A DNA stretch of 64,000 nucleotides from Oscillospiraceae bacterium (GTDB lineage: Bacteria; Bacillota; Clostridia; Oscillospirales; Acutalibacteraceae): assembly GCA_031265995.1 (NCBI GenBank), contig JAISBW010000025.1, positions 9,264 to 73,263 of the forward strand, given 5' to 3'. A program made the position numbers and the translations under genes. The notes under the pieces are model-generated. The model saw only the letters and a program-made list of their open reading frames with translations, searched no databases and had not been told where the DNA came from. Below, in pieces: positions 1,219 to 50,279 of the stretch (positions are counted from its first letter, which is position 1; each line of letters opens with the position of its first letter).

Positions 1219-1305
1219 TCTGTTCTCATAAACTTTAAAAACCTGTATTCAAAAGAATTAAAATATCTAATTTTCAATAATTTTTTTCAAAATTTTGTCA
1301 AAAAA
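1219..1305. repeat. Family-C end fragment followed by a half copy of the family-A MITE
   Basis: tctgttctcataaac matches family-C termini. aacctgtattcaaaagaattaaaatatctaattttcaataatttttttcaaaattttgtcaaaaa matches the left arm of family A. Confidence 0.7.
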
Positions 1306-1306
1306 G

Positions 1307-1329
1307 AAAAACTCCCAAACGGGAGTTTT
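1307..1329. terminator. Possible bidirectional rho-independent terminator between convergent genes
   Basis: Hairpin aaaaactccc-aaac-gggagtttt, flanked by an A-run upstream and a T-run in the 3' stem arm. It lies between the NhaC-like gene (+) and ORF 1402..1890 (-). Confidence 0.4.
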
Positions 1330-1401
1330 AAAAACGCACTTAAAGGTTTGCCTAATTTCAGGAGAAAATCACTAAAAAACTGCTAAACAACGTTTTTTGT
1401 C

Positions 1402-1890
1402 TTAAAAAGATCCTGCTTTTTTTGCCATATCACTTTTAAATTGATTCACACGAAAAAGGTTGTATAATTTGCCGGAAAAGAATAAAGAAAGTCCTGCTAA
1501 AGCCATACTCCATGAAACAATTAATGCATCACCTGGATGTATTGCTGTAAATAACGTATTAGCTGCCCTTCCGACTTCTCCATTTCTAGCTAAATAACGT
1601 GAAATACCTTGTGCATTTTTGGTAACGATGTTTATAAGTACTGCCATAGACATAAACACTTCTCCTGCTGTCATAAAACCTCTTCCAGCACTTTTTGCCT
1701 GATCCCGCTCGAGAAATATCCTAGCTGTTCGCTCAATTGCAGTATTTTCCGTGTCTGTATTCACACGAACCCTATCTGTTGTACCCATGAACGCCGAGCA
1801 ACTCTTTGATTGCGCTGGGATAAGTAAAGAAAATGCCATTGAAAGAGCCGCTACCGACCTAACTAACTTAGAACCACTGAACTTAAACAT
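1402..1890 (-). CDS. Hypothetical secreted/membrane protein
   Basis: 162-aa ORF with a GGAGG Shine-Dalgarno site 6 nt upstream of the ATG. It has an N-terminal signal-like segment and a C-terminal hydrophobic segment. G+C is visibly above the local background. No recognisable family motif. Confidence 0.5.
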   Translation of the reverse strand: MFKFSGSKLVRSVAALSMAFSLLIPAQSKSCSAFMGTTDRVRVNTDTENTAIERTARIFLERDQAKSAGRGFMTAGEVFMSMAVLINIVTKNAQGISRYLARNGEVGRAANTLFTAIHPGDALIVSWSMALAGLSLFFSGKLYNLFRVNQFKSDMAKKAGSF

Positions 1891-2023
1891 AAAGAACCTC
1901 CTAAAAAAATATCAAAGATGAATAACATCTCCACCCAAAGCATATCATAGAAATAATAAACTTTTCAATAATAATTTTAATTTTCATATAAACACACATT
2001 AATTATTACATATATTTGGTTTT

Positions 2024-3358: not shown

Positions 3359-3479
3359 AAAAGCATTATATCATAATTTTGTTGTTTATTTGATTTTTTT
3401 ATTAGTTTGGCTCCTATTCCTCGAAAATTAATTTCTGAGAAGATAGGAGCCGTAACGAACAGCATAGAAAATTTTTGAA

Positions 3480-5972: not shown

Positions 5973-5990
5973 CTAAATCACCTCTTTTTA

Positions 5991-8356: not shown

Positions 8357-8431
8357 TGCAAAATCCCGTAGTACAATGGAACAGAAAATAAATCCAATGA
8401 AGAATGAAAAATTATGGAACAAATATTACAC

Positions 8432-8594
8432 GGCTACGTCTATTCAAAAGGGCAAATTTCAAATTTTCGAAGAATTTTTCTTCAAAATGAGGAAAAAGCA
8501 TGATGAATATTTTATGTATCAATTGCGCTTTTTCATCATTACTAGAGAAAAATTCTTCGAAAATTTGAAATTTGCCCTTTTGAAGACAGGTTCT
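8432..8594. mobile_element. Family-A MITE, palindromic variant (two right-arm-type halves)
   Basis: tattcaaaagggcaaatttcaaattttcgaagaattttt... is mirrored by ...aaaaattcttcgaaaatttgaaatttgcccttttgaagacaggttct. The mirror-image track ORFs 8376..8600 and 8412..8606 are artefacts of this palindrome. Confidence 0.8.
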
Positions 8595-9756: not shown

Positions 9757-10431
9757 TCAATTATGGAAAATTTTAGAACCTGTCTTCGAAAATTTGGAAT
9801 TTACTCTTTTGAATACAGGTTCTAAGCTTTTTTGAGGCTCCCTCATTATTAAAAACATCGCAAGATATATACACAAAGCTAAAAGTGAAATGTTAACTTT
9901 CGACCTTAAAAATATAAAAAAACCAAATACCGCAAGCGGGATTAAAAATAAAATTGAAATTATAAATGAAATTTTTTCAGCTAATTCAAGTTCCATTTTT
10001 TTTTCTAATATAATTTGCATTATTTTACCTCCATCAAGAGATGAAATAGGTAAAAGGTTTAGAATTCCTATACTTAAGCTTTCCGTTGAAATCAAATTTA
10101 AAATATTTTTATAAAAAAATAAAGATAGCAAAAAGCAAATCAAAGAAATAAGAAAATTCATAAAGGAACCGCTTAAAAGCATAACAATATCTTTTTTATA
10201 CGACTGATTTTGATTTTCTTCGACAATATCGAAACTAAATGGTTCTATTTTTATTATTTTTATACGTCTTCCGCTTAAAATAAAAGCGATAATATGACCT
10301 AATTCATGAATGATAGACAAAACCGCGGCAATCGGAACTTCGATATTTGGGCGTAATATCATTATTATCGCAAATATGAATAAAAAGAAAAAACTTATAT
10401 AAATTCGGCATCCGAAAATTTTTAAATTCAT
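9757..10431 (-). CDS. M50 site-2 metalloprotease (SpoIVFB-like, no CBS domain)
   Basis: Polytopic membrane protein with HELGH and the NLLPISSLDGG (NxxPxxxLDG) motif of the S2P/M50B family. The last ~20 codons are encoded by a mini MITE. Confidence 0.7.
   Translation of the reverse strand: MNLKIFGCRIYISFFFLFIFAIIMILRPNIEVPIAAVLSIIHELGHIIAFILSGRRIKIIKIEPFSFDIVEENQNQSYKKDIVMLLSGSFMNFLISLICFLLSLFFYKNILNLISTESLSIGILNLLPISSLDGGKIMQIILEKKMELELAEKISFIISILFLIPLAVFGFFIFLRSKVNISLLALCIYLAMFLIMREPQKSLEPVFKRVNSKFSKTGSKIFHN
9775..9823. repeat. Mini family-A MITE (49 bp) inside the 3' end of the M50 protease gene
   Basis: agaacctgtcttcgaaaatttggaatttactcttttgaatacaggttct contains both family-A termini with the interior deleted. 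Confidence 0.75.
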
Positions 10432-10509: not shown

Positions 10510-10690
10510 TAGATATGTCTTAGAACTGAAATTTTTTTGTCAATTTTACAAAATTCGGTTTAATGACATGTCTAATATTATGATACTTCTTTTTTAGATT
10601 ATTCTGCTTTAAAATTTGGTATCTAAAACCTGTTCTCATAGACTTGGAACATCAGTTTTAAAGAAAATTTTGAATAATTTTTGTTGGAAA
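10510..10690. repeat. Cluster of degenerate MITE fragments (B-like, A-like and family-C end)
   Basis: gacatgtctaatatta is B-terminus-like. aaacctgttctcatagacttggaacatcagttttaaagaaaattttgaataatttttgttgg is the family-C left arm. Confidence 0.6.
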
Positions 10691-10802
10691 TTGCATCGCG
10701 TTGTATTTTGTTTTATTTACATATATAATCAGATTGTGCCCAAATAATAAATATTTTTTTAAAAAATTAGAATCTAGAAAATTTTAAATTCAAGAGATTT
10801 AA

Positions 10803-13549: not shown

Positions 13550-13665
13550 AAACCTGTTTCCACGGATTTGAAATATCAATTTTAAAGAAAATTTTGAATA
13601 ATTTTTATTAATAACCCATTATCACAAATTTGAAAATGGCATTTTAGGTCTGTAAGAACGGGTTC
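13550..13665. mobile_element. Family-C MITE, near-complete copy
   Basis: The left arm aaacctgtttccacggatttgaaat... and right arm ...aaaatggcattttaggtctgtaagaacgggttc are inverted. TAA direct repeats flank it at 13547-13549 and 13666-13668. A further solo end (acgggttc) lies at about 13679-13686. Confidence 0.7.
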
Positions 13666-13777
13666 TAAATTTAAAGTTACGGGTTCTTATTTTTATAATT
13701 CCTAATGTTGTATAATCTTCAAATATAAATATTTTATAAAAATTGGTAAACTGCCTTAAATAAGGAGGCGTAAATAT

Positions 13778-16800: not shown

Positions 16801-16885
16801 CCAGCCGAAAATTGTTAGATTTTAAGAGATTATGGCGATATGGAGCCAGTCTGATCTATCAAAATTTGTCTGTGGAGGGGCGTTT

Positions 16886-17926
16886 ATGGCTAATAAAGTT
16901 GGGTTTTGGTCTCTACTCGTGGTGATGATAATGGCAGGCGTGTCCGTTTGTTTTGCGGTGATAGTAGAAATAAAAGATGTCCAAGGTGGGGTTGTTTTTG
17001 TTTATAACACCGAAACTCGAACGATTACAGATGTGAGGACTGGAACCGTTTACTTGTTAAGAGAACAACATGAAGAAACTCTTGAGTTACTTACCTTCGG
17101 TGGCAAGTGTGTTGTATTTAGCGACAAGATTTTTCAGGAAGGTTCCAGCAGTGCGGTATGCGAGTTGGAGGGAAGTGAAATAGAACCGGTGGAAGGATGC
17201 TTGGGTTGTTTTTTGTTTGCTGTTATGGGCACTCAAAAAGAGGTCACATTTCGTGTGTTCACAACAAGGCCGAGGTGTGAATCTCCGGGCAGTATGGCAG
17301 GGGCAAATACGTTGAATATTCCGTCGTTTGCTATAGGCGGGAATTTTGTATGCAAACCGGGGATGGATGAATTTAGAGAAATAGACCGGGGGATTGTTGC
17401 CGAAAGCTCTGCTACTCATGATGCTCGCTTTAAATTACGCGATGGTAGGATTTTTTGCCGCCAGTCGATTAATAGAGCTAGTTGGTTACGCTCTGGTCCG
17501 ACTTTAAGAACTACTCAGCCAAGTAATCTTCGTCAAGGTGATTTTCAAATGGAAATGATTTTGCAATATCAGCCCGGCGCTCCGATTCCTACCCTGGTTA
17601 AGCTGTTTGCGGCACAGTGTTTTGTAGGTCTTAGGGACCAGATGGACGGAATAAACGATATGTCTATCTATAGATGTGGGCTGCAGCAGCAATATAATAC
17701 AGCAACGGATTCAGGGCGTTCGTTTGCTGTCGAAAGAGGGATCATTGAAAGATACAACAGAGAAATAGATAGCGGTCGAAGAAGACCTGGAAATTACCGA
17801 GATGAAATAACCCAAGAGTTAGAAAGATTGGCAGAGGAGCAAGGTTTTCGACCTGTGCCGCCAGAAGAAAGGATCGGTGTAGTGGAATATGTAGAAGGAT
17901 TGGAACAGCAACAACCGCAAGTATAG
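16886..17926 (+). CDS. Hypothetical membrane-anchored protein in a G+C-elevated island
   Basis: The track ORF starts at 16832, but the ATG at 16886 has a GGAGGGG SD 5-6 nt upstream and begins MANKVGFWSLLVVMIMAGVSVCFA (TM/signal). No family motif recognised. G+C is clearly above the flanks. Confidence 0.55.
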   Translation: MANKVGFWSLLVVMIMAGVSVCFAVIVEIKDVQGGVVFVYNTETRTITDVRTGTVYLLREQHEETLELLTFGGKCVVFSDKIFQEGSSSAVCELEGSEIEPVEGCLGCFLFAVMGTQKEVTFRVFTTRPRCESPGSMAGANTLNIPSFAIGGNFVCKPGMDEFREIDRGIVAESSATHDARFKLRDGRIFCRQSINRASWLRSGPTLRTTQPSNLRQGDFQMEMILQYQPGAPIPTLVKLFAAQCFVGLRDQMDGINDMSIYRCGLQQQYNTATDSGRSFAVERGIIERYNREIDSGRRRPGNYRDEITQELERLAEEQGFRPVPPEERIGVVEYVEGLEQQQPQV

Positions 17927-18084
17927 GAAATTTGAAATGTTGGTTTTTTAAAAATCCAGAATTAGAAGAAATTCAAAAGAAAAAATCCGAAAGTGCAAGC
18001 AATAAAAAAGAATCCGCTAGTTGGGTTCTTCTTTATTTTAATTTTAAATTATTTTAAAGTTAACCTTTTTAACTACTATTGCAG

Positions 18085-18843
18085 TCATCTAACAGCCTTC
18101 AAAAACATTGGAATCACCGCTTCAATGTCTGTTGCATCAGCGATTTTTGCAGCAGTTGTGACTTTTTTTTCAGTACTTGAATATGCCTCAATCCCAGCCC
18201 ATACAAGTGGAAAAATGTCAGGACCTGGAGATTTTTCAATACCATCACTTTTGCCCAAAGATTGATGTCTTATGGTCACTCCTACTTTTGCTTTAAGCGG
18301 TTCTCCATAAGGGGAGAAGCAAGAATATTCACAATCCACACTAGTAATAGACCCGAAAAATTCAATATCACCCCACCTAAATAAAGCAAAATAATCTTGT
18401 GTATTTGAATATTGAAATAGTTTTTCAATGATTACAAAATTTTCATTAGCCAAAGACAAAGAAAAATCTAAAGGCGTTCTAGAAAACGCAAAAGGTGCTG
18501 CTCCATTTCTTGTGCGGGCATTATACTCATCGTATATATCAAATTCCAAGTCTAAAGTTAACTCTTCTTCTTTATTTTTCCCTCCGCCTACAAGTGCATA
18601 AGAAACAGATTTTGGATCAACAGGAGGCAATGGTAGGTCTATTGCTTTTTGTTCTGCTCGATTGCGTTTTAATTTTTGAGGATTTACCTGTACTGGCAAT
18701 GCTTCTTCTGCATCGTAATCATAAGGATGAATAGGACTAATACCTGGTCTAGCCCTAACAATAAATATAACAGCTTTAACCACTGAAGAGAAATCATACA
18801 TAACGCTGGTGCGGTATTTTGTCAAAACTGATGTTCCGAACAT
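18085..18843 (-). CDS. Hypothetical protein with a possible contractile-injection-system tube-like domain
   Basis: 252-aa ORF with a GAGGG SD. TLDLEFDIYDEY ... FALFRWGDIEFFGSITSVDCEYSCFSPYGEPLKAKVGVTI resembles the L.L.FDtY ... F.WG...F.G.I.S....y.lF.pdG.P.rA.V pattern of CIS tube / Afp5-like proteins. The pattern is recalled from memory, not searched. Confidence 0.45.
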   Translation of the reverse strand: MFGTSVLTKYRTSVMYDFSSVVKAVIFIVRARPGISPIHPYDYDAEEALPVQVNPQKLKRNRAEQKAIDLPLPPVDPKSVSYALVGGGKNKEEELTLDLEFDIYDEYNARTRNGAAPFAFSRTPLDFSLSLANENFVIIEKLFQYSNTQDYFALFRWGDIEFFGSITSVDCEYSCFSPYGEPLKAKVGVTIRHQSLGKSDGIEKSPGPDIFPLVWAGIEAYSSTEKKVTTAAKIADATDIEAVIPMFLKAVR

Positions 18844-18879
18844 AAAACCCTCTTTATTTAATTAAATTTTAAGAAAAAC

Positions 18880-19065
18880 ACTAGTGTATTTAACTAACGA
18901 GCAATGCAAAATTTTAAAATTTTAACTAAAATATGTGCTATTTCAGAGATATTAGATAGGCTCTTATATTGTTTGCAGAATTTGTACTGATTATTCGTAA
19001 TTATCAACAATTGCGCTTTTTAGTATCTTGCGATAAAATCTGGTTAGAGATATTAGACAGGTTCT
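18880..19065. repeat. Family-B MITE fragments (a partial copy plus an extra solo terminus)
   Basis: ctagtgtatttaactaacgagcaatgcaaaattttaaaattttaactaaaatatgtgctatttcagagatattagataggctc is followed by a second terminus, ataaaatctggttagagatattagacaggttc. Confidence 0.7.
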
Positions 19066-19147
19066 AACGTCAAGCAGGGGATTTTAAAAAAATTATCAAA
19101 ATTTATTTAAAAATTGCGTTTCATAGTCTGCGAGAACAAGTCCTGGA

Positions 19148-19283: not shown

Positions 19284-19431
19284 GAACCTGTATTCAAGAG
19301 AATCAAAATACCTAATTTTCAATATTTTTTTTAAAATGCTCAGAATACATAAAGTATTCATTGTGCTTTTTTCCTCATTTTGAAGAAAAATTCTTCGAAA
19401 ATTTGGAATTTACCCTTTTAAATACAGGTTC
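19284..19431. mobile_element. Family-A MITE (internal deletion variant)
   Basis: GAACCTGTATTCAAGAG ... CCTTTTAAATACAGGTTC, flanked by TAA at 19281-19283 and 19432-19434. Confidence 0.85.
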
Positions 19432-20708: not shown

Positions 20709-20819
20709 TCGATTTTTTAAAATTTATATTAATAAATTCTAAGAACCCACTCTCATAGACCTGTAATGTCAGTTTAAAAACAGACTCTTAGTTCGGAACT
20801 TTATATTTAATTTAAAATT

Positions 20820-24162: not shown

Positions 24163-24487
24163 GAGCCTGTCTAATATCTCCGAAATAGCACATATTTTAG
24201 AACTTGTATTCAAAAGGACAAATTCCAAATTTTTGAAGAATTTTTCTTCATTAATGATAAAAAAAGCGCAATGAATACTTTATGTATTCTGAGCATTTTT
24301 GACAAAATTTTGAAAAAAATTATTGAAAATTAGGTATTTTGATCCTTTTGAATACAGGTTCTTAGTTAAAATTTTAAAATTTTGCATTGCTCGTTAGTTA
24401 AATACGCTAGTATTCGCCTTCCTCGTACTTTAAATTTTAAAAATTTTATCATAAAATCTGCACTACTTAGAGATATTAGATAGGCTC
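24163..24487. mobile_element. Family-B MITE carrying a nested family-A MITE
   Basis: GAGCCTGTCTAATATCTCCGAAATAGCACATATTTTA | A insert | GTTAAAATTTTAAAATTTTGCATTGCTCG...GAGATATTAGATAGGCTC. The uninterrupted B copy at 29877-30036 reads straight through the insertion point. Confidence 0.85.
24200..24361. mobile_element. Family-A MITE inserted into the family-B element
   Basis: GAACTTGTATTCAAAAGG...CCTTTTGAATACAGGTTC, flanked by TTA at 24197-24199 and 24362-24364. The empty site in other B copies has a single TTA. Confidence 0.85.
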
Positions 24488-24686: not shown

Positions 24687-24779
24687 GAACCTGTATTCAA
24701 AAGGATCGAAATACCTAATTTTCAATAGTTTTCTTCAAAATTTTGTCAAAAATGCTCAGAATACATCAAGTATTCATTA
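24687..24779. repeat. Family-A MITE left half, truncated at the G+C-rich island boundary
   Basis: TAA then GAACCTGTATTCAAAAGGATCGAAATACC...GCTCAGAATACATCAAGTATTCATT. The consensus continuation (gcgcttttt) is replaced by aattaacgacacgatgcaacc. Confidence 0.75.
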
Positions 24780-24849
24780 ATTAACGACACGATGCAACCG
24801 TTATCTGGCAATGCGAGACTTGGGCGGATAATTAAAGAGAGGTAAAGCG

Positions 24850-26913: not shown

Positions 26914-27005
26914 AATAGTTTACGATTAAATTCGACGACATTTATAAACAAGCCAATCATAATTTTATGCATTTCAGAATACTCAAAGAGTACTAAAAAA
27001 TCTAA

Positions 27006-27166
27006 GAACCTGTATTCAAAAGGATCAAAATACCCAATTTTCAATAATTTTTTTCAAAATTTTGCCAAAAATGCTCAGAATACATAAAGTATTCATTGCG
27101 CTTTTTTATCATTACTGAAGAAAAATTCTTTAAAAATTTGGAATTTGCCCTTTTGAATACAGGTTC
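27006..27166. mobile_element. Family-A MITE, full length (161 bp)
   Basis: GAACCTGTATTCAAAAGGATCAAAATACC...GCCCTTTTGAATACAGGTTC with TAA direct repeats at 27003-27005 and 27167-27169. Confidence 0.9.
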
Positions 27167-29784: not shown

Positions 29785-29876
29785 GAACCTGTATTTAAAA
29801 GGGAAAATTCCAAATTTTCGAAGAATTTTTATTTAAAATGAGGAAAAAAGCGCAATGAATACTTTACGTATTCTGA
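29785..29876. repeat. Family-A MITE half copy abutting a family-B element
   Basis: TTA then GAACCTGTATTTAAAAGGGAAAATTCC...GCGCAATGAATACTTTACGTATTCTGA. It stops at the same TGA/TCA trinucleotide where B is inserted in the 49979-50279 composite. Confidence 0.8.
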
Positions 29877-30036
29877 GAGTCTATCTAGTATCTCCGAAAT
29901 AACACATATTTTAGTTAAAATTTTAAAATTTTGCATTGCTCGTTAGTTAAATACGCTAGTATTTGCCTTCCTCACATTTTAAATTTTAAAAATTTTATAA
30001 TAAAATCTGCACTACTTGGAGATATTAAACAGGCTC
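29877..30036. mobile_element. Family-B MITE, uninterrupted 160-bp copy
   Basis: GAGTCTATCTAGTATCTCCGAAATAACACATATTTTAGTTAAAATTTT...CTACTTGGAGATATTAAACAGGCTC, with terminal inverted repeats of about 35 bp. Confidence 0.85.
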
Positions 30037-32389: not shown

Positions 32390-32550
32390 GAACCTGTATT
32401 CAAAAGAATTAAAATACCTAATTTTCAATAATTTTTTTCAAAATTTTGTTAAAAATACTTAGAATATATAAAGTATTCATTGTGTTTTTTTCCTCATTTT
32501 GAAGAAAAATTCTTCAAAAATTTGGAATTTTCCCTTTTGAATACAGGTTC
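32390..32550. mobile_element. Family-A MITE, full length
   Basis: Canonical termini with TTA direct repeats at 32387-32389 and 32551-32553. Confidence 0.9.
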
Positions 32551-32698: not shown

Positions 32699-32895
32699 GA
32701 ACCTGTATTCAAAAGAATCAAAATACCTAATTTACAATAAATTTTTTTCAAAATTATGTCAAAAATGCTCAGAATACGTAAAGTATTCACTGCGATTTTT
32801 TCCTCATTTTGAAGAAAAATTCTTCAAAAATTTGGAATAGGTTTTTTAGAATACCAGTTTTGAAGAAAATTTTGAATAATTTTTGTTGAGAACTA
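32699..32895. repeat. Family-A MITE truncated at its right end and fused to a family-C fragment
   Basis: TTA then GAACCTGTATTCAAAAGAATC ... aaatttggaat, then cagttttgaagaaaattttgaataatttttgttgagaac (a family-C arm). Confidence 0.7.
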
Positions 32896-32916
32896 ATGTT
32901 TATAGGTTTCAAACAT

Positions 32917-33434: not shown

Positions 33435-33594
33435 GAATCTATATTCAAAACGGTAAATTTCAAACTTTCGAAGAATTTTTCTTTAAAATGAGGAAAAAAA
33501 CACAACGAATGCTTTATGTATTCTAAGCATTTTTGACAAAATTTTGAAAAAATTATTGAAAATTAGATATTCTGATCCTTTTGAAGACAGGTTC
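33435..33594. mobile_element. Family-A MITE between tatD and ispF
   Basis: GAATCTATATTCAAAACGG...CCTTTTGAAGACAGGTTC with TTA repeats at 33432-33434 and 33595-33597. The right-hand repeat is the TAA stop codon of tatD on the minus strand. Confidence 0.85.
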
Positions 33595-34359
33595 TTAGGT
33601 TAAAGACATATCAAAAAGACTAAAAGCATTGTTTTTTGTTATTTCGAAAATCAAACCCAAAGGCATATCTTTGATCTCGGCAAGCTTTGCACCAGTATAT
33701 TTTATATACGAAGAATCACAGCGACCTCCTCGCACAGGAACAGGCGCAAGGTAAGGCGCATCCGTCTCCAAGAGAATTTTTTCAATAGGTATTTTTTTTA
33801 TTGTTTCTGCTAATTTCTTTGAATTCTTAAACGTCAAGACTCCGCCAACTCCAATTCTAAACCCTATACCAAAAAGCGTCTCGGCAAACTCTAAGTCTCC
33901 CGAAAAACAGTGAACAACACCCCTTGGTCTTGTTTTTTTCAAAATCTCAATCATATCTAAAGAAGCATCTCGGGAATGAACAATTATCGGCAAATCAAAA
34001 TCTTTAGCTAAACTAATCTGTTCTAGAAAAACCTTTTTTTGTAATTCGGCATCGGCAAAATTTCTGCTATAATCTAAACCGATTTCTCCAACGGCCACTA
34101 CCTCTTTATTTTCGATAAGCTTTCCTAAGTCAGACAGAAAATCACTTGAAAGATCGGAAACATTTTGAGGGTGAACTCCAACTGATGCAAAAACAAAACT
34201 GTAATCTCTTGCAATCTCTAAACACTTTAGGCTACTTTTGGGATCAGACCCGACATTAAGCACCCCGCTTACGTTTTTAGACGGAAGAGAATCTAAGAGT
34301 TCGCATCTATCCTCATCAAACGCCGAATCGTCATAATGGGCGTGAGAATCAAAAATCAT
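33595..34359 (-). CDS. tatD: TatD-family metal-dependent DNase/hydrolase
   Basis: FDSHAHYDD, VAVGEIGLDY, IVHSRDA, VVHCFSG and ETDAPYL are the TatD/YabD motif series. Confidence 0.85.
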   Translation of the reverse strand: MIFDSHAHYDDSAFDEDRCELLDSLPSKNVSGVLNVGSDPKSSLKCLEIARDYSFVFASVGVHPQNVSDLSSDFLSDLGKLIENKEVVAVGEIGLDYSRNFADAELQKKVFLEQISLAKDFDLPIIVHSRDASLDMIEILKKTRPRGVVHCFSGDLEFAETLFGIGFRIGVGGVLTFKNSKKLAETIKKIPIEKILLETDAPYLAPVPVRGGRCDSSYIKYTGAKLAEIKDMPLGLIFEITKNNAFSLFDMSLT

Positions 34360-34962: not shown

Positions 34963-35124
34963 GAACCTGTATTCAAAAGAGCAAATTCCAAATTTTTGAA
35001 GAATTTTTCTTCAGCAATGATAAAAAAAGCACAATGAATACTTTATGTATTCTGAGAATTTTTGACAAAATTTTGAAAAAAATTATTGAAAATTAGGTAT
35101 TTTGATCCCTTTGAATACAGGTTC
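34963..35124. mobile_element. Family-A MITE, full length
   Basis: Canonical termini. The flanks are TAA (34960-34962) and TTA (35125-35127), so they are not identical here. Confidence 0.85.
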
Positions 35125-35255: not shown

Positions 35256-36320
35256 CTAATCGGAGGGAAACATTTTTTTAAATATTCTTATATACATTCT
35301 GGAATTTTCAAAGTTTATATCTTTAAAACTACTTAAGTTCGTGCCATCGTTAATACGTCCTATCTTTGTTTCATAGATGTATGCGTTTGCTGCTGCACAT
35401 AAACTTTTCCAAAAGAATTCATTCCTATCGTCTTGTTGTTCGGGAGATCTTGATATAATTTGGTCCCATGCTGGAATAGCATATAAAATACCAAAAGAAT
35501 CTACTAGACCTAACGCTATTATGTTTGCTAAGCGACTTTCAGACAGTGAATTATGTTCGTGCTTAATTTTATCAAATATCCACAACATTGAAGTGGCTAT
35601 TTTTTGATACACAAAAAAAGCTTTTGCTTCTTTTTCTTCCGTCAGCATGCCGTTTGAATCAGCAAACGCATACACCATAAGTGCGGCAAAAACATTAAGC
35701 CCTTGCCGGTACTCAAATTTCCCTAACCCTGCCAACAATATTCTCTCGAATGCTTTAGATCCTTCGTTAACTTCGCTCAGGTATCGTTGCGTGTCCTCGC
35801 CGATTCTTTTCAGGTCTTCCATTATTTGTGTAAATTGACTTCCATATTTTGATTTGATATCTTCGAGCAGTTGGAATTCGGTATTGTAATTAGTTAAATC
35901 TTCTCGAGTACCACCCAATTTAGTAAACCAAATATCTGCGCGGTTGCTGGGTTTGGTTTTTATGTCTATCTCAAGTTGCTTGGCTTTTGCATCGTCTATC
36001 TCAAGTTGCTTGGCTTCTGTGTTCAGCTTTAACTGCCATACTAACATACCTGCTGTTAATGTTACTGCTACCCCTGTTCCTACTATCTTCAACACTTTAG
36101 CTAAAACGTCTGACTCTGAATTGACTATTTTTTCCCTCTTTCGGTCTAGATGATCAATCGTTAATTTAACAGCCGTGCTTGCACCACCGCTAAAACCAAT
36201 CAAAGCCGCCGTGAGAGTTGCTAAAAAAAAATCAAACTTTTCGCCTGTGGCTTTTCCCAGATTGTTTTGGCCAAAATTTCGTCTATTTCTAAAAAAATAC
36301 CTTTTCATGGATTTATTCAC
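35256..36320 (-). CDS. Hypothetical protein: N-terminal 2-TM hairpin plus helical domain
   Basis: 354 aa with two hydrophobic segments near the N-terminus and an internal 30-bp tandem duplication encoding AKQLEID twice. No family motif recognised. G+C is elevated. Confidence 0.55.
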   Translation of the reverse strand: MNKSMKRYFFRNRRNFGQNNLGKATGEKFDFFLATLTAALIGFSGGASTAVKLTIDHLDRKREKIVNSESDVLAKVLKIVGTGVAVTLTAGMLVWQLKLNTEAKQLEIDDAKAKQLEIDIKTKPSNRADIWFTKLGGTREDLTNYNTEFQLLEDIKSKYGSQFTQIMEDLKRIGEDTQRYLSEVNEGSKAFERILLAGLGKFEYRQGLNVFAALMVYAFADSNGMLTEEKEAKAFFVYQKIATSMLWIFDKIKHEHNSLSESRLANIIALGLVDSFGILYAIPAWDQIISRSPEQQDDRNEFFWKSLCAAANAYIYETKIGRINDGTNLSSFKDINFENSRMYIRIFKKMFPSD

Positions 36321-37779: not shown

Positions 37780-39244
37780 GTGAAAAATTCATTATTTAAA
37801 AAATTCATCTTAAACACCATGTCTGCTCTTGTTTTATTTCCGACAATGAACACTCGCGTAGCTGCTGATCCTATAGAGGTCACTGTTCGGGTTGGATTTG
37901 TCGGTAAGTCAGGGGGTTGGCAAAACAATGATTATCAATAGTATGTATAGTAGGGACGATGCGAAACATAAAGAGTATACATCACCTAACTCGAAAGCTC
38001 ATTCCATGGTCCTAGAAAATGAGGATGGAATTAAAACCAGAGCTTTGTACACTGAGGACTTAAGCGGGCGGGAAAAACAGGAGGACGTTACTACTCATTG
38101 TCTTCGCAATTGTTCACTAGCCGTAATGACCGCTGATTTAAGAAGAGAAAGCGTTGAAGAATTTTCACAATGGTTTCCAATACGAACAAAAGAATGCCCT
38201 GGAGCAAAAATTGTTTTTGTGATAAATGGGCATGCGCCGTCTTCTTGTAACGCTAGTGAAAGATTTAATTCCGCAGTAGAAGCGGAGGATAGACTCAAAG
38301 AATTGTGTGAAAATATAGATCTTGGAGAATTTAATATTTACTGTGCCGATCTGTCAAAAGGAGACGAACTTACCGAACTGGTGAATAGACTAACTGGTCT
38401 GGCTTTGCAGTGTGCAAGAGAAAAAGAAGAAAAAATGAAAGAAGAGGAAGAAAAAAGGAAAGAAAGAGAAGAAAAAAGGAGAGAAGAGAAAGAAAGAGCA
38501 GCGGTTGCTAAATTAAATGCCGCCCATCTTACTGCTGTGATTTTTGGCGAGCCAGGGGTTGGGAAAACATCAATTTCAAAGATATGGCTTGGTGAAACCA
38601 TAAATCTTGGTGAAACCATAAATTTGGAAAGGGCAAATTTTGGTACTTCGTTGGAACGTGGATTCATAAAAAAACATGGAGATGTGATATCACTAATTCT
38701 TTACCTAGAACCAACTACGTCATCAGCCACAATTAATTTTGGAAGTCGTATCTTACCAATTGTAATGGTCTCTGACTTAAGACGAAAAAGCGTTGAATCC
38801 GAGGCATTTGCGCAATGCCTTCGAAGACTAAGAAGAAAATACCCTGAAGCAAAAATTGTTTTTGTGGTAAATCAACATGCGCCGTCTTCTTGTAACACTA
38901 GTGAGAAATTTGATTCCGTAGAAGAAGCGGAGAATAAACTCAGAGAATTGTATGAAAATGAGCGTAGTAGAAGACTTAATATTTGCCATGCCGATCTGTC
39001 AAAAGAAGATGAACGCACCAAACTGGCGGATAGATTAATTGATCTTGCTTTCAAGTGTGTGGAAGAGGGTAAATTACTGGGCGACGTACCTAAATCTAGG
39101 TATAATATCTTTGGAATATTGCCTTTCGCCATATTGCCGGTAGGCGGTTGGTATTGTTTTAAGTTCAGAAGAAAATCAATTGATAAGCAAATAAGTGCAC
39201 AGCCCGACCAGGAACCGAAAGAAAATGAAAATCAGATTGCTTGA
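37780..39244 (+). pseudogene. Tandem Ras-superfamily-like GTPase protein with C-terminal TM anchor, interrupted by a frameshift in a G5 run
   Basis: GTG 37780 (GGGGG SD) encodes a hydrophobic leader, then VRVGFVGKSG, and terminates at 37940. ORF 37892..39244 continues with VGKTMIINSMY in another frame. Removing one G from G5 (37912-37916) restores the P-loop GKSGVGKT. Domain 1 has DLSG (DxxG). A second P-loop, GEPGVGKT, follows a KE-rich linker. A TM segment lies near the C-terminus. Confidence 0.55.
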
Positions 39245-40204: not shown

Positions 40205-42022
40205 TTGAAATTTGTTTCGGTTGTCGTCCCCCTGTTCAATGAAGAAAGATATATCGATGATTTAATAAGTTCGATTTTAAAACAAGATTATAGTAAAGAA
40301 AACCTGGAAATATTATTTATAGACGGTGGTTCTTGTGATCTAACTCTTAAAATTATAGAAAAAAATATAAATTCTTCTTGCTTTGATATAAAATTAATAA
40401 ACAACCCGATGCGTACAGTCCAGCACGCGATGAATTTAGGGATAAAAAATTCAAAAGGCGAAATAATCGTAAGAATGGATGCCCATGCCGTTTATTCGCC
40501 GGATTATGTCTCAAAATGTGTTGAAGTCATTAGAAAAACAGGCGCTCAAAATGTTGGCGGGTTAATGCTTGCCAAAGGCAAAACAAAAATGCAAAAAATT
40601 ATCGCGGCCGCTTATCATATTAAATTTGTCCTTGGAGGCGGAAAGAATCACGATGAAAATTACGAAGGTTTTACGGATACCGTTTTTCTTGGGGCGTTTA
40701 ATAAAAAATATTTAAATATGATTGGCATGTATGACGAAAATTTTATTATTAATGAAGACGACGAATTAAATTATAGAATTATTGAAAACGGAGGTAAGAT
40801 TTTTGTTACGCCAGAGATAAAAAGTGTTTATTATCCGAGGGATAATATAAAAGAATTATTTAAACAGTACTTAAATTACGGACTTTGGAAGGTAGCAGTA
40901 ATAAAAAAACATAAAAAACCGGCTAGAATTTCTCATTTAGTGCCTGCTTTATTTGTTGTTTTTTTGTTATTTTTCCCGTCTTTATTTTTTGTTTATAAAT
41001 CGCTTTTTTTCTCATATATTTTAGTTCTAGTTATTTACGCTTGTCTAAATATTTATTTTTCGTTTGGAAGTAAAATCATATCTGGTTTTTTTGAAAAAAT
41101 TACGCTTGCCTGGGTTAGTTTTATAATCCATACATCTTACGGATTGGGGTTTTTATTTGGATTATTTAAATTTTGTTTTAAAAAATTTAAAAAAAGTTAT
41201 TCAAAAATAAAAATTTCGCCTGAAAATTTACGTGAACTACAGTTAAAAAGTTTGGACTTATTTATTCGTTTTAAAGATTTTTGTGAAAAAAACAACTTAA
41301 AGTTTTTCCTTTGCGGTGGGTGTTGTATAGGTGCAATAAGGCATAAAGGGTTCATACCGTGGGATGACGATATCGATGTTTTTATGCCAAGAGAAGATTA
41401 TGAAAGATTATATAGAATTTATAATGAAGAAAATTCCTATTGCATTAAAACTACAGAAAAAGTGTTTTCCGGAAATATTTTTACTACAATAGTCGATAAA
41501 AATACAACACTAATAAAAAAAGAACAGATTGGAACTAAAATACCAAAAGGCATAACAATAGATATTTTGCCGCTCGATGCGTGTCCTTCGAGCTTTTTTG
41601 ATCGAAAAATCCAAAAGATTAGCGCTATGATTTATTCGCTTTATACCGCGCGGGTGATACCTAAAAATCACGGTAAAGCTATTGAGTTAATGGGAAAATT
41701 AGCTTTGAAGTTGGTGTTTAATGATAAGATCAGATATAGGATTTCTAGATTTTGCGAAAAAAATATGTCAAAATATAAAATCGATGAATGCGAATTTTTT
41801 ACCGAACTTTGTTCGGGTCTTGGTTACATGAACAATAAATATCCTAAAGAAATTTTCAAATCATCTATTTTAAAGGAATTCGAAGGAATTTTAGTACCGC
41901 TGCCATATGATTATGATAAATATTTAAAAATCGTTTTTGGGGAATATATGAAACTTCCTCTAAAAGAGGAACGGATTCCACACCACGATATAATTTTTAT
42001 GGATTTGTCTCATGGAAATTAG
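40205..42022 (+). CDS. Fusion protein: GT2 glycosyltransferase, TM region and LicD-family phosphotransferase
   Basis: N-terminus VSVVVPLFNEERYI..FIDGGSCD..NEDDE (GT2). The middle has about 3-4 TM helices. The C-terminus has LKFFLCGGCCIGAIRHKGFIPWDDDIDVFM (LicD motif). The TAG stop overlaps the first base of a MITE. Confidence 0.75.
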   Translation: MKFVSVVVPLFNEERYIDDLISSILKQDYSKENLEILFIDGGSCDLTLKIIEKNINSSCFDIKLINNPMRTVQHAMNLGIKNSKGEIIVRMDAHAVYSPDYVSKCVEVIRKTGAQNVGGLMLAKGKTKMQKIIAAAYHIKFVLGGGKNHDENYEGFTDTVFLGAFNKKYLNMIGMYDENFIINEDDELNYRIIENGGKIFVTPEIKSVYYPRDNIKELFKQYLNYGLWKVAVIKKHKKPARISHLVPALFVVFLLFFPSLFFVYKSLFFSYILVLVIYACLNIYFSFGSKIISGFFEKITLAWVSFIIHTSYGLGFLFGLFKFCFKKFKKSYSKIKISPENLRELQLKSLDLFIRFKDFCEKNNLKFFLCGGCCIGAIRHKGFIPWDDDIDVFMPREDYERLYRIYNEENSYCIKTTEKVFSGNIFTTIVDKNTTLIKKEQIGTKIPKGITIDILPLDACPSSFFDRKIQKISAMIYSLYTARVIPKNHGKAIELMGKLALKLVFNDKIRYRISRFCEKNMSKYKIDECEFFTELCSGLGYMNNKYPKEIFKSSILKEFEGILVPLPYDYDKYLKIVFGEYMKLPLKEERIPHHDIIFMDLSHGN

Positions 42023-42183
42023 AACCTATATTCAAAAGGGCAAATTCCAAATTTTTTAAGAATTTTTCTTCAGCAATGATAAAAAAAACACAATGAATAC
42101 TTTATGTATTCTGAGTATTTTTAATAAAATTTTGAAAAAAATTATTGAAAATTGGGTATTTTGATCCTTTTGAATACAGGTTC
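42022..42183. mobile_element. Family-A MITE between the GT2-LicD gene and tarI
   Basis: GAACCTATATTCAAAAGGG...CCTTTTGAATACAGGTTC with TTA repeats at 42019-42021 and 42184-42186. Confidence 0.9.
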
Positions 42184-43939: not shown

Positions 43940-43969
43940 GAGTGAGAATACCCCGGACATTCAATAAAA

Positions 43970-44040
43970 CTTGGAATTTACCCTTTTTGAACACGGGCCT
44001 CAAGATCCTGTCTAATGTCTCTAAATAGTGCAGATTTTAT
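43970..44040. repeat. Degenerate family-A right end followed by a family-B left end
   Basis: acttggaatttaccctttttgaacacgggcctc, then gatcctgtctaatgtctctaaatagtgcagattttat. Confidence 0.6.
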
Positions 44041-44046
44041 TAAGAA

Positions 44047-44295: not shown

Positions 44296-44647
44296 TGAGA
44301 TTTTGCCTCAATAAATATTTTGAAGACTTTGTTCCTTATTTGTTATTGCGCAGTTGCTAACTTGTCCATATTAAATAGTTCTAAAAACCAAATTGAATTC
44401 CTAAAAAAACTTCGATCATCTTATAACATGAGAATTGTGTTTCGAAAAACAAAACAACTTTGGGCAATTGTATCATATTTTTTAAGTATTGTCAATTTGC
44501 AAAATATAACAAAACTGCTCAAAACGTTTTTCTAAAGAAATTGAAAACCCGCTCTCATAAACTATTAAACACTACAGCTGACCTATTTTTCAAAAAGTCT
44601 CAGTTAGATTATAAAACAGGTATGTCATGAAAAATAGTTGAAGTTTA

Positions 44648-45649: not shown

Positions 45650-45966
45650 ACTCCTATATTTGGTTTTATTTTATAATTTATAATAACAAATTCAAGGAAA
45701 ATTTTGAACAATTTCTATTGAAAATTATGTAGTTTGGCTGACACCAGGCAAGGAATTCGAAAAGAAAATTAGAAAAATTCATTTTAAAGTGGCGTTTCAT
45801 AATCTGTAAGAACGAATTCTTAATAAAAATTATTCAAAATTTTCTTTAAAATTGACATTCCAATTTCGTTAGAATTAGATTATTAGATTATACCACTAAA
45901 AACTGACTTTAAAATTTGTTTATTCATACAAATAGTTGATTTAAATTGTATTTTTTTAGAAAATCA

Positions 45967-45995
45967 TTGACTAAAGAACAAATATATAGTACTAT
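45967..45995 (+). promoter_or_regulatory. Possible promoter upstream of spo0A
   Basis: TTGACT (45967-45972), a 17-nt spacer, then TACTAT (45990-45995). Chance matches are frequent in DNA this AT-rich. Confidence 0.25.
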
Positions 45996-46072
45996 TTTAC
46001 TAGATTTGATAAAACGCGTCAAATAAGCTTTTTTATAGACCTTGAATATTTTTAGAAGGAGTACATACTTAC

Positions 46073-46855: not shown

Positions 46856-46862
46856 CGATTAA

Positions 46863-47062
46863 GAATCTGTATTCAAAGAGGAAAAAAACACAATGAATAC
46901 TTTATGTATTCTGAGTATTTTTGACAAAATTTTGAAAAAAATTATTGAAAATTGGGTATTTTGATCCTTTTGAATACAGGTTCCAAAATTTAAAGCGCGA
47001 GGAAGGCGAATACTAGCGTATTTAACTAACGAGCAATGCAAAATTTTAAAATTTTAACTAAA
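46863..47062. repeat. Family-A MITE (121 bp, left-arm deletion) abutting an internal family-B fragment
   Basis: GAATCTGTATTCAAAGAGG...CCTTTTGAATACAGGTTC (46863-46983), then aaaatttaaagcgcgaggaaggcgaatactagcgtatttaactaacgagcaatgcaaaattttaaaattttaacta. Confidence 0.8.
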
Positions 47063-47070
47063 TTCTTGAG

Positions 47071-47934
47071 CTATTTGTTTTTAATTGAATTTAATGTGAT
47101 ATTCGTAAAAAAATTAATCGCAAAAACAAAAATTAGCAATATTAGCGCGTACAAAAAAGCAATCGCAACAGAATCGTCCGTATTTGCTTGTTTAACTGTC
47201 TGATAGAGATGTAGTGTTAAAGTTCTTCCGCTTGAAAACATGTGAGAAAAAAAATTTTTCGGCATTTTACACATCATTCCGGAAGTGTATATCAAGGCGG
47301 CGGATTCTCCGGCTATTTTCCCGATGCAGAGCATTATTCCAGTAAAAATCCCAGGTACGGCGCAAGGTATTGTAGCGCTTCTTAGGGTTTTAGCTCTCCC
47401 TGCGCCAAGAGAAAAAGAAGCCTCTTCATAGGTTAATGGAACAGAATTTATCGCCTCTTCTGAGGCTTTTATTATGGTCGGAAGTGTACATAAAACCATT
47501 GTGAGACAGCCTGCAATGATTGAAGTCCCCATTCCCAGTTTTATACAAAAAAAATCATATCCGAATAAACCTAATACCAATGATGGTAAACCAGAAAAAA
47601 TTTCAATCGTAAAATGCAATACACGTGAAAAAATTCCTTTTTTTGAATATTTCGAAAGCCAAATTGCTGTTCCGATCCCTATCGGAAGTACAAAAAAAAG
47701 CGCAAGAATGATGATATACAGTGTATTTATTATTGTAGCCAGCATATTTTTTCCATTGAGTATGTTTTTGTTTAAAAAATCCAAATTAACATACATGGCT
47801 GATTTTACTAAAATATAAACAACAACCGACAATAACACAAAAAATACGGCAAAAGCCGAAAAATAGGTTACTGACCTAAGAACAAAACTTATAAATTTTG
47901 TTTTTTTTATGTGTTTTTCGTTATTAAAAATCAA
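47071..47934 (-). CDS. pstA: Phosphate ABC transporter permease PstA (orphan)
   Basis: 6-TM ABC permease with EAA loop EEASFSLGAGRAKTLRSATIPCAVPGI and GESAALIYTSG (PstA-like GETAPL). No pstS, pstC or pstB is adjacent. Confidence 0.65.
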   Translation of the reverse strand: MIFNNEKHIKKTKFISFVLRSVTYFSAFAVFFVLLSVVVYILVKSAMYVNLDFLNKNILNGKNMLATIINTLYIIILALFFVLPIGIGTAIWLSKYSKKGIFSRVLHFTIEIFSGLPSLVLGLFGYDFFCIKLGMGTSIIAGCLTMVLCTLPTIIKASEEAINSVPLTYEEASFSLGAGRAKTLRSATIPCAVPGIFTGIMLCIGKIAGESAALIYTSGMMCKMPKNFFSHMFSSGRTLTLHLYQTVKQANTDDSVAIAFLYALILLIFVFAINFFTNITLNSIKNK

Positions 47935-48089
47935 TCTTATTTTTATCCTATCTTCTCTAAAGAAAAATTTAAAGTCTAACTTTTTTAGTAATACATTGCG
48001 AAGTATACTTTTTAAATAATACTATTGCAAGAGTTTTTTAAAAAATATTAAAAGATTTATAATTATTCATGATTTTTTCGCACTTCTAA

Positions 48090-48174
48090 GAACCTGTATT
48101 CAAAAGGGCAAATTCCAAATTTTTGAAAAAAATTATTGAAAATTGGGTATTTTGATCCTTTTGAATACAGGTTC
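48090..48174. mobile_element. Mini family-A MITE (85 bp)
   Basis: Both termini and sub-terminal arms are kept and the centre is deleted. TAA repeats lie at 48087-48089 and 48175-48177. Confidence 0.85.
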
Positions 48175-48246
48175 TAAATATTTCCGACAATATTTTTAAT
48201 TTAAATAATTTATTTTTATTGTTTTAAACAATTATTTAAAAATCTA

Positions 48247-48275
48247 TTGAAACTTAGTAATGATTAATATATAAT
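48247..48275 (+). promoter_or_regulatory. Candidate sigma-A promoter
   Basis: TTGAAA (48247-48252), a 17-nt spacer, then TATAAT (48270-48275). It is 55 nt upstream of ATG 48331. Confidence 0.45.
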
Positions 48276-48330
48276 TTAATCATAAGCTTTGCTGCATTGC
48301 TTAATTTTATTTTATAAAAAGGAGTTCGAT

Positions 48331-49020
48331 ATGAGTTTTTTTAAAAAAGCCTTTAGTTTGGCTTGTGTTTTAGCTTGTTTTTCAGGATTTATTTCAAATG
48401 GGGTTTCAGCAGGGAAAGTAGTTTATACGGCAGAAGCTAAAAGAGATCCAAAAGATGAATATAGACTATTGGTATCAGAAGATTCACTGGTTCCTGAGTC
48501 TAAACAAATTTTAAGACAATTTTTAGAATTGTTTCCATTAGTGCCACTGAATAAACCGGTGAGATCACCATTTGGTTTTGATAATGCTCCATTCTTTGAG
48601 GTCGGAAAAGTCATTGAAGGAATGGAAGGAAGAGAAGAGGTGGGTATTCCTTTAGTAAAAGATGGAAGCTTGGCTTTTGTTGTTTTCGAATCAATAGTAA
48701 GTCCACAGATGAAAAAAATCGTAGGGAGATGCCGCCCAACATTTAATCCTGATGGAACAATTAGTCTTAACCTCAATGGTCGCCCGTCTTCGTTTCCGGA
48801 TTCTGTTGTTTTAACCATTACAGAGCATACAGGTTTCAATCCAAAAAAACTTTTTCAAGAAATAAAAGAACGTGCAGAAAGTAGGCGTCATTTTCGAATC
48901 CAAACTGAGCGTGGGAGTCGAATTTATTTCCCTTGCGATGAACAGACAGAAAATGAGTATGATCGTTTGCTTCAACATCTCGGTGCTGCATTCTGCTTAC
49001 CATCAAGTGTTGAAGAATAA
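48331..49020 (+). CDS. Secreted/lipoprotein-like hypothetical protein, paralogue 1
   Basis: ATG 48331 is preceded by an AAGGAG SD (the track start at 48289 is upstream of the SD). Signal peptide MSFFKKAFSLACVLACFSGFISNGVSA. It shares SPFGF..GMEG..NGRP..FP blocks with the next gene. Confidence 0.65.
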   Translation: MSFFKKAFSLACVLACFSGFISNGVSAGKVVYTAEAKRDPKDEYRLLVSEDSLVPESKQILRQFLELFPLVPLNKPVRSPFGFDNAPFFEVGKVIEGMEGREEVGIPLVKDGSLAFVVFESIVSPQMKKIVGRCRPTFNPDGTISLNLNGRPSSFPDSVVLTITEHTGFNPKKLFQEIKERAESRRHFRIQTERGSRIYFPCDEQTENEYDRLLQHLGAAFCLPSSVEE

Positions 49021-49086
49021 TCGATAATAATTTAATTATAAGCTTTGCTGCATTGCTTAATTTTATTTTATAAAAGGAGTTTCGAT

Positions 49087-49896
49087 ATGAGTTTTTTAAA
49101 AAAAGCCTTTAGTTTGGCTTGTGTTTTGGCTTGTTTTTCAGGATTTATTTCAAATTGGGTTTCAGCGTTCGAGGTTTTTGAGGTAATTGCTAGAAGAAAT
49201 CCAAGTGATGAATACGAGCTATTGTATGATAAAGGAAGTTCTCCATCAAATTCTGAACTTAATGAAATTTTTGGACAGCTTACAACACTCTATTCGGGTA
49301 GAGGGTCGGGAGTGCAGAGTAAATCGCCATTTGGTTTTGTAAATAATGTTCCGTCTTGGTTTCCGTCTAGGGAACTCAGTAAAGTTATTACAGGAATGGA
49401 AGGATGCGAAGAGGATGGCTTTTTCCTTAGAAAAGAAAACGGAGATTTAATTTTTGTTACTTTTAGTACAACTCCGGAATCATTTGGTGTTTGCTGGGAT
49501 TTTGGTGGAAGTAAAAAACTTTTTTTAACTTTTACAGAAGAGGAAGCTACTGAAGGCAGAACTCTGTATGAACTTGGGGATTTAGCTTCAGGAACCCCTT
49601 GGAAAGATCCTAGCATTGATGCGGGAAGTGAAATTTTAGTCAAGTTAGAACCATTTATGAAAGAACCGAGTAAAAGTTGTCCAATAAGTTTTGATAGAGA
49701 TGTAATATTCAGACTTAATTATAACGGAAGACCGTATCTCTTTCCAAACGTTGTTAGGGTTTTCATAAAGGTGCATGAAATAACACAACCTCAAAAAGAA
49801 AATTTTATAGGAAGAATGAAAAAAGAAGTAATAGGAATACTTGGCTGGCCTGAATGGCTTAACTATCTTGTTAGTGGAGTTTTACCGACTCAATAA
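49087..49896 (+). CDS. Secreted/lipoprotein-like hypothetical protein, paralogue 2
   Basis: ATG 49087 with an AAGGAG SD. The signal peptide is almost identical to paralogue 1. The mature part is homologous but strongly diverged. Confidence 0.65.
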   Translation: MSFLKKAFSLACVLACFSGFISNWVSAFEVFEVIARRNPSDEYELLYDKGSSPSNSELNEIFGQLTTLYSGRGSGVQSKSPFGFVNNVPSWFPSRELSKVITGMEGCEEDGFFLRKENGDLIFVTFSTTPESFGVCWDFGGSKKLFLTFTEEEATEGRTLYELGDLASGTPWKDPSIDAGSEILVKLEPFMKEPSKSCPISFDRDVIFRLNYNGRPYLFPNVVRVFIKVHEITQPQKENFIGRMKKEVIGILGWPEWLNYLVSGVLPTQ

Positions 49897-49978
49897 TAAG
49901 AAGTGGTTTATTTTATAAACCGGCACAAACCCGTTCTCATAGGCTTGGAGTGCCATTGTCCACGAGGACGGGTTTTTG

Positions 49979-50279
49979 GAACCTGTATTCAAAAGGATCA
50001 AAATACCTAATTTTCAATAATGCTCAGAGCCTATCTAATATCTCTAAGTAGTGTAGATTTTATGATAAAATTTTTAAAATTTAAAGCGCGAAAAAGATAA
50101 ATACTGGCGTATTTAACTGACGAACAATGCAAAATTTTAAAATTTTAACTAAAATACGTGCTATTTCGGAGATATTAGGCAGGTTCTCAGAATACATAAA
50201 ATATTCATTGCGATTTTTTTATCATTACTGAAGAAAAATTCTTCAAAAATTTGGAATTTACCCTTTTAAATACGGGTTC
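49979..50279. mobile_element. Family-A MITE carrying a nested family-B MITE (50027-50186)
   Basis: GAACCTGTATTCAAAAGGATC...aataatgcTCA | GAGCCTATCTAATATCTC...GAGATATTAGGCAGGTTC | TCAgaatacataaa...CCCTTTTAAATACGGGTTC. TCA is duplicated at 50024-50026 and 50187-50189. Confidence 0.85.

Follow-up and report, generated by a model that had tools for sequence, protein, structure and literature searches.

Insertion sequences (ISs) of the IS1031 group prefer the target 5'-TNA-3' and leave an exclusive 3-bp repeat (PMC12016507). One such element, ISLrh of Lacticaseibacillus rhamnosus, measures 857 bp, belongs to the IS1031 subgroup, and has 17-bp inverted repeats, GAACCTGTCTAGTATCT; its transposition into a plasmid has been observed, with a TGA duplication (PMC12016507). 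Here, we analyze three families of short repeats—A, B, and C—in a 64,000-nucleotide stretch of an Oscillospiraceae bacterium (GenBank assembly GCA_031265995.1, contig JAISBW010000025.1, positions 9,264 to 73,263), the whole of which is referred to below as the window. The repeats are very probably non-autonomous MITEs (miniature transposable elements with inverted repeats) of the IS5 family's IS1031 group. IS1031-group MITEs are already known as a kind, and A, B, and C are three MITE families that had not been described previously.

The repeats share with the IS1031 group inverted repeats of 17 to 20 bp that start with GAA or GAG. The likeness to ISLrh lies in the inverted repeat (compare GAACCTGTCTAGTATCT with GAACCTGTCTAATATCTC of family B) and in the exclusive 3-bp T-N-A duplication, whereas the window elements are 50 to 160 bp long, have no transposase gene, and cease to resemble ISLrh after ~18 bp. 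The hosts differ as well, ISLrh belonging to Lactobacillales and the window to the metagenome-assembled genome (MAG) of an uncultured gut member of the Clostridia. Short noncoding repeats in which only the terminal inverted repeat resembles a full-length IS5-family element have been described as BrickBuilt and MITEPgRS in Porphyromonas gingivalis and as ATR in Neisseria; like the repeats of the window, they are mainly intergenic, occur in tens of copies, and are nested in other mobile elements (PMC4596501). However, they belong to other IS5 subgroups, have ends of the type GAGACC..., and show irregular or absent duplications in place of the clean TNA duplications seen here. The density of the window MITEs is also much above theirs. 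Tourist MITEs and PIF/Harbinger transposons typically duplicate TTA or TAA, and PIF/Harbinger transposases are distant relatives of the IS5-family enzymes. Tourist MITEs and PIF/Harbinger elements resemble the window repeats in their 3-bp target duplication (PMC2213677) but are eukaryotic, have other ends, and require a second protein, and the repeats of the window bear no sign of eukaryotic origin.

Repeat families and insertion footprints

End-pattern searches of the window, allowing up to three mismatches, returned 26 matches to the family A end GAACCTGTATTCAAAAGG (0.09 expected), 9 to the family B end (0.01 expected), and 6 to the family C end (0.04 expected). The end of family B reads GARCCTGTCTAATATCTC and that of family C reads GAACCCGTTCTYAYAGAC. 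Profile hidden Markov models made from full copies and run over the window resolved 17 distinct loci for A, 7 for B, and 6 for C, and five more C-type ends were recognized by pattern or by eye, for a total of ~11. These numbers bear out the counts of about 17, 7, and 11 given in the original prediction, made from the sequence by eye, and the end patterns confirm the start GA(A/G)CC(T/C)GT that it had ascribed to all three families. Full family A copies are 148 to 162 bp long, with a mean mutual identity of 90% (range, 82 to 96%); the reference copy of 161 bp lies at 27006–27166 (+) between two TAA triplets. Family B copies are 160 bp. Family C is heterogeneous, with one 116-bp two-ended copy (13550–13665), one 49-bp mini copy (49927–49975), and otherwise fragments. 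Across families, elements measure 47 to 162 bp and lack the capacity to encode a transposase. The predicted deletion derivatives of 49, 85, and 121 bp exist: an 85-bp family A derivative without its center (48090–48174, −; TAA/TAA), a family A derivative of ~121 bp that abuts a B fragment at 46984–47075 (46863–46983, −; flanks TAA/CAA), and mini elements of 47 to 49 bp, namely a family A element at 9776–9822 (+) and the copy with C-type ends at 49927–49975 (+).

All A, B, and C copies lie within positions 1215 to 50279. The profile search of the window covered 0 bases beyond position 51000, no copy extends beyond 50279, and none lies inside the island of ~50% G+C at 24779–26975, in keeping with the predicted absence of copies from the prophage and from the interior of the G+C-rich island. 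Between positions 1 and 51288, MITE sequence totals ~3.5 kb, or 35% of the intergenic DNA, and 21 of the 35 intergenic gaps hold at least one MITE (~0.7 loci per kb). Only 61 bp overlap coding sequence, the remainder being intergenic, and orientation shows no bias. This density is high for a bacterium and fits the expansion of mobile elements in lineages turning host restricted.

Flanking sequences record how the elements arrived. Identical 3-bp flanks were found in 9 of 15 two-ended elements (TAA in four, TTA in four, and TCA in one), where random flanks would be identical with a chance of 2.4% per element (P = 1.3e-11 for 9 of 15). A T-N-A flank is present at 32 of 34 recognizable ends. Given T-N-A on both sides, the middle base agrees in 9 of 13 cases, which is modestly significant (P = 0.024). 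Since this agreement is only modest, the decisive evidence for target duplication comes from two nested insertions. The family A consensus holds aatgcTCAgaatac once; at 50024–50189, the window instead reads TCA, a complete family B element, and TCA. This B element, the 160-bp reference copy (50027–50186, +), splits a family A copy (49979–50279, +; parts 49979–50023 and 50190–50279; outer flanks TTG/TAA). Conversely, the family B consensus holds atattTTAgttaaaa once, and at 24197–24364, the window reads TTA, a complete family A element (24200–24361, −), and TTA, within a family B copy (24163–24487, −; parts 24163–24199 and 24365–24487; outer flanks TAA/TTA). In each case, the triplet is present a single time in the consensus of the interrupted family, so that the two nested insertions serve as reconstructed (paralogous) empty sites and prove that 3 bp of target sequence are duplicated. 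With A inside B and B inside A, the two families must have been active in overlapping periods.

The nine duplication pairs quoted in the original prediction are all exact, and its view that the repeats are a transposition footprint rather than a REP or terminator signature is upheld by the 3-bp duplications, the nested insertions, and the lack of terminators in the elements. Its TWA target stands in the outer T and A, but W is too narrow for the middle base: because TCA and TGA also occur, the target is better written TNA.

Affiliation with the IS1031 group and related autonomous elements

Family B ends connect the repeats to ISLrh. The ends GAACCTGTCTAATATCTC (19047–19064) and GAGCCTGTCTAATATCTC (24163) match the ISLrh repeat at 15 to 16 of 17 bases, and a Bacillus thuringiensis element has an end that agrees with the family B end at 15 of 17. 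On the L. rhamnosus plasmid pLC1 (NC_013200), we confirmed four copies of ISLrh, each 857 bp long and flanked by T-N-A. The ISLrh transposase, which is frameshifted, was rebuilt and contains DUF4096 (PF13340), DDE_Tnp_1 (PF01609), and DDE_Tnp_1_2 (PF13586). IS1031-group homologues were sampled across plasmids of distant hosts for their ends and duplications: the B. thuringiensis element (end GAACCTGTCTAAAATCT; TTA/TTA), a Companilactobacillus element (GAAGCTGTTTAGTATCT; TAA/TAA), a Lactiplantibacillus plantarum element (GAACGTGTTTGGATAC; TGA/TGA), a Picosynechococcus element (GAGCCTATCTATAAAG; TTA/TTA), and IS12528 of Gluconobacter (GAGCCCTTTTGGAAATTC; TAA/TAA). A GARCC-type start and TNA duplications are common to all five.

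For family A, bona fide autonomous elements with the same ends were found in metagenomes. Scanning metagenome contigs with TNAGAACCTGTATTCAAAAG gave 24 loci, five of which (L059, L061, L068, L073, and L074) hold complete elements of 820 to 846 bp with GAACCTGTATTCAAAAG at both ends; family A ends are identical to these over 17 of 17 bases. Three of the five are flanked by TTA/TTA and L073 by TGA/TCA, and the contig of L059 stops within the right flank, after the T. Each complete element has two overlapping frames joined at an A-run, giving a 253-residue transposase whose stop codon falls inside the right inverted repeat. This A-type transposase is homologous to that of ISLrh over its full length (E down to 9e-36), its database relatives carry PF13340, PF01609, and PF13586, and both transposases score above the curated cutoff of NCBIfam NF033580, IS5 family transposase. 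The original prediction had named IS5-like families as the obvious candidates, which was right and can now be sharpened to the IS1031 group by the ends of ISLrh and of the metagenome elements.

A further four of the 24 metagenome loci hold partial copies. Another four of these loci hold small MITEs (51 to 193 bp) with GAACCTGTATTCAAAAG ends and unrelated interiors (L058, 894–944; L062, 689–851; L069, 4383–4575; L071, 750–911), with mostly TAA or TTA duplications. Such unrelated MITEs with the same ends in other organisms indicate that the A-type transposase lineage has spawned MITEs repeatedly. Two more relatives, L081 and L083, come from other samples and have A-like ends with TAA/TAA duplications; their contigs have G+C contents of 30% and 40%, respectively, compared with 41 to 48% for the contigs of the five complete ~840-bp elements. 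Three A-type homologues from low-G+C or NCBI sources were considered as the host's own transposase and rejected, all being from other samples; they add to the examples of A-like ends with TAA duplications. Searching GTDB species genomes for the family A end in its exact form gave 24 single matches, which have no T-N-A flanks, second end, or transposase and are ascribed to chance. A degenerate 26-base pattern of family A gave 0 matches in metagenomes, viral contigs scanned with A, B, ISLrh-type, and C ends yielded either nothing or unpaired chance matches in coding sequence, and blastn of family B against plasmids returned only AT-rich noise.

Several observations weigh against assigning the repeats to the IS1031 group as its MITEs. 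The ~840-bp metagenome elements are autonomous and have interiors unrelated to family A, and similarity between MITEs and autonomous elements is limited to the terminal 17 to 19 bp, so that the MITEs did not arise from the elements found by simple internal deletion. A tblastn search of the 64-kb window with both transposases detected neither a gene nor a remnant from either transposase lineage, as the original prediction had stated of transposase genes. For family C, which shares only the group-wide GAACCYGT start, viral contigs scanned with C ends yielded no autonomous partner. Empty sites are paralogous only, consisting of the two nested insertions, and the nearest database relatives have ~70% PFK identity and are not syntenic. 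Finally, five two-ended elements, on which the original prediction is silent, have nonidentical flanks: 34963 (TAA/TTA), 24163 (TAA/TTA), 29877 (TGA/TCA), 46863 (TAA/CAA), and 49979 (TTG/TAA). This last feature is normal wear for the group, because ISLrh on pLC1 also has nonidentical flanks in three of its four copies. Overall, we remain highly confident that A, B, and C are IS1031-group MITEs, and the comparison provides the three families with a firm family assignment and a predicted mobilizing enzyme.

Number of transposases and alternative identities

As IS1031-group MITEs, the repeats could have spread as follows. Each is a short AT-rich noncoding segment of ~50 to 160 bp bounded by inverted repeats of the kind that an IS1031-type DDE transposase recognizes, an enzyme with an N-terminal DUF4096 and a DDE_Tnp_1 catalytic domain. 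The transposase would be, or would formerly have been, supplied in trans from a full-length IS elsewhere in the genome. It would excise or copy the element and insert it at T-N-A with a 3-nucleotide stagger, whose repair would duplicate the T-N-A triplet. Successive rounds would have filled the intergenic regions, and elements have also entered one another. We infer that mobilization in trans took place in this host and that the activity is probably old rather than current, because copies are only 82 to 96% identical and many are truncated.

How many enzymes would have been involved can be judged from the ends. The original prediction proposed that a single TWA-targeting transposase mobilized all three families, considering their shared GA(A/G)CC(T/C)GT start. 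The first 8 bases and the TNA target are indeed common to A, B, and C, the reciprocal nesting of A and B implies overlapping activity periods, and the ends of A and C agree at 12 of 18 positions and have similar subterminal arms, so that C is closer to A. However, the same first 8 bases are conserved across the IS1031 group in unrelated phyla, with examples from Lactobacillales, Bacillus, cyanobacteria, and Acetobacteraceae. GAACCTGT therefore marks the termini of the group as a whole and is not evidence for a single enzyme, and such a start should not be taken as a sign of one transposase. Past these 8 bases, A and B ends diverge at 9 of the remaining 10 positions (agreement at 9 of 18 overall). 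Each matches a different transposase lineage, and the two lineages, which share only 32.4% identity between the A-type and ISLrh-type transposases, keep their own ends: A-type ends are found with the L068 clade, and B-type ends are found with the ISLrh and Bacillus clade. Judging by this pairing of ends and enzymes, families A and B most likely each relied on a cognate transposase of their own. We read the three families as derivatives of at least two IS1031-group lineages, and a single transposase for all three is unlikely.

Another scenario is also unlikely. In this lineage, related to intracellular symbionts of gut protists, three co-active IS1031-type MITE families might have undergone an unusually large burst followed by the loss of all autonomous partners, leaving fossils that could number about a thousand copies genome-wide, some of them perhaps co-opted as gene ends, in the form of stop codons and C-terminal extensions (9776, 33594, and 42022); or one transposase of relaxed specificity might have cross-mobilized all three.

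It is very improbable that the repeats are structured RNA genes or mainly transcription terminators rather than IS1031-group MITEs. Every copy can form a long hairpin through its inverted repeats, and family A has a small central hairpin followed by a T run, but the duplicated targets and the nesting are footprints of insertion, and both orientations are found in the same gene contexts. At the gathering score, Rfam recognized only tRNA-Gln in the window, and in permissive mode, the elements gave only plant miRNA hairpin matches far below threshold. In an RNAalifold analysis of nine family A copies, the covariation term was unfavorable (+1.09), with double changes in 4 of 52 pairs. A promoter and terminator scan showed no enrichment; no terminator fell within the elements, and terminators were no more frequent than in shuffled sequence.

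Still less credible is an origin from a TA-duplicating family (IS630/Tc1-mariner, as for Correia, RUP, and Stowaway elements) in which the third base would be part of the element: T and A do flank nearly every end, but the duplicated unit is 3 bases, its variable middle base matches on both sides in nine elements (including the TCA case), both nested cases show the whole triplet exactly once in the consensus of the host element, and the ends match IS1031-group elements rather than IS630. REP or BIME repeats, which are palindromic units of ~20 to 40 bp that lack target duplications and are associated with RAYT transposases, were likewise rejected in view of the element length (116 to 162 bp), the 3-bp duplications, and the IS-type ends (RAYT was not searched for).

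Effects on genes, further copies, and neighboring regions

Insertions at T-N-A often coincide with stop codons or adjoin them. In the TatD gene (33595–34359, −), the TAA stop codon is the right copy of a target duplication (33595–33597) that belongs to a 160-bp family A element (33435–33594, −; TTA/TTA). The LicD-type gene at 40205–42022 ends in a TAG composed of the TA of a target duplication and the first G of a 162-bp family A element (42022–42183, −; TTA/TTA), three residues short of its end in the reconstructed empty site. In addition, the open reading frame of an M50 peptidase (9757–10431, −) reads 21 codons into the 47-bp mini element.

The remaining copies are described here along the window. 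A C-type end (1215–1236) is followed by a family A left part (1240–1304), the pair spanning 1215–1304 (+). The family A variant at 8436–8593 (+) has two right-type arms and a degenerate left end; its left arm is the reverse complement of a right-type arm, making the element symmetric (right/right), and it is ~70% identical to the other A copies. A family C left part lies at 10626–10692 (+). The 116-bp copy at 13550–13665 (+), the sole near-complete member of family C, is flanked by TAA/TAA, with a further solo end at 13670–13685. A cluster at 18871–19141 adjoins tRNA-Gln and comprises the right half of a B element (18871–18963), a second B-type end (19016–19064), and a C fragment (19076–19141). 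It is followed by a 148-bp family A copy with a 13-bp internal deletion (19284–19431, +; TAA/TAA) and a solo C-type end (20743–20800, +).

Two composites of A and B have B at the same TCA position of A and in the same orientation. One is the nested pair at 49979–50279, and the other, at 29785–30036 (−), joins a truncated A (29785–29876) to a full B (29877–30036; flanks TGA/TCA) and lacks the other half of A. Either a hot spot was struck twice or one composite was later duplicated.

Family A copies are also present at 32390–32550 (+; 161 bp, TTA/TTA), at 32699–32859 (+), where a degenerate right end abuts a C fragment (32847–32913), and at 34963–35124 (−; 162 bp), where the flanks TAA/TTA are not identical. 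Farther along, a family A right-end fragment (43966–43999) stands beside a family B left-end fragment (44004–44046), the two spanning 43966–44046 (+). A solo C-type end (44545–44580, +) and two abutting family C fragments (45682–45726 and 45787–45873, within 45682–45873) follow.

The island at 24779–26975 has ~50% G+C in a genome of 33% G+C and carries a GmrSD type IV restriction gene (24850–26913; GmrSD_N, GmrSD_C, and DUF5655). A family A left part (positions 1 to 92 of the element; 24687–24778, +) ends exactly at the island start. Since the island begins precisely where this copy is cut at position 92, the island must have arrived after that MITE. With the family A reference copy on the other side, the arrangement at 24687–27166 (A left end, GmrSD island, and full A copy between TAA triplets) was considered as a composite transposon but is not supported, because no target is more frequent than TAA and the A fragment shows a plain truncation where the island starts.

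The phage-like region at 51469–63656 encodes large and small terminases, ParB_N, a SNF2 helicase, a VapE-type primase, and a family A DNA polymerase. The absence of MITEs from it would fit an entry later than the MITE burst or a want of sites that tolerate insertion. A segment at 16832–18843 has 39 to 48% G+C and contains an open reading frame of no known family together with a contractile-injection-system tube protein (18085–18843).

The nearest database relatives are ~67 to 72% identical in PFK and include Candidatus Improbicoccus pseudotrichonymphae and Candidatus Improbicoccus devescovinae, endosymbionts of termite-gut flagellates; for Candidatus Improbicoccus, the nearest named relatives, PFK identity is about 67 to 69%. 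No A, B, or C copies were found in ~63 kb from three relatives, among them two Candidatus Improbicoccus genomes, so that the expansion appears to be lineage specific. Three eukaryote-like proteins are encoded in the window (35256–36320, 37892–39244, and 50368–51288), comprising a Roc-type small GTPase, a weak RabGAP-TBC match, and a calpain-family protease, and in Candidatus Improbicoccus pseudotrichonymphae, the PFK gene is neighbored by Ras/Roc/Arf-like genes (L055, 5780–6820 and 11072–11728). Together, these genes suggest a protist-associated or intracellular lifestyle.

Logan short-read contigs of the same organism (L001 and L026, from SRR14710922) stop inside A, B, and C copies. The repeats disrupt short-read assembly of this organism. 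At the PFK locus, the copy in the Logan contigs differs from that in the window at several bases, probably through repeat collapse in assembly. Once more strains are sequenced, the repeats could be used as insertion-polymorphism markers.

The window also contains repeats unrelated to the MITEs. Sequences at 48271–48410 and 49027–49166 are 94% identical and form the 5' regions of tandem paralogues (48289–49020 and 49045–49896), and a 259-bp repeat with 79% identity between its copies (38156–38414 and 38801–39059) lies inside the Roc GTPase gene.

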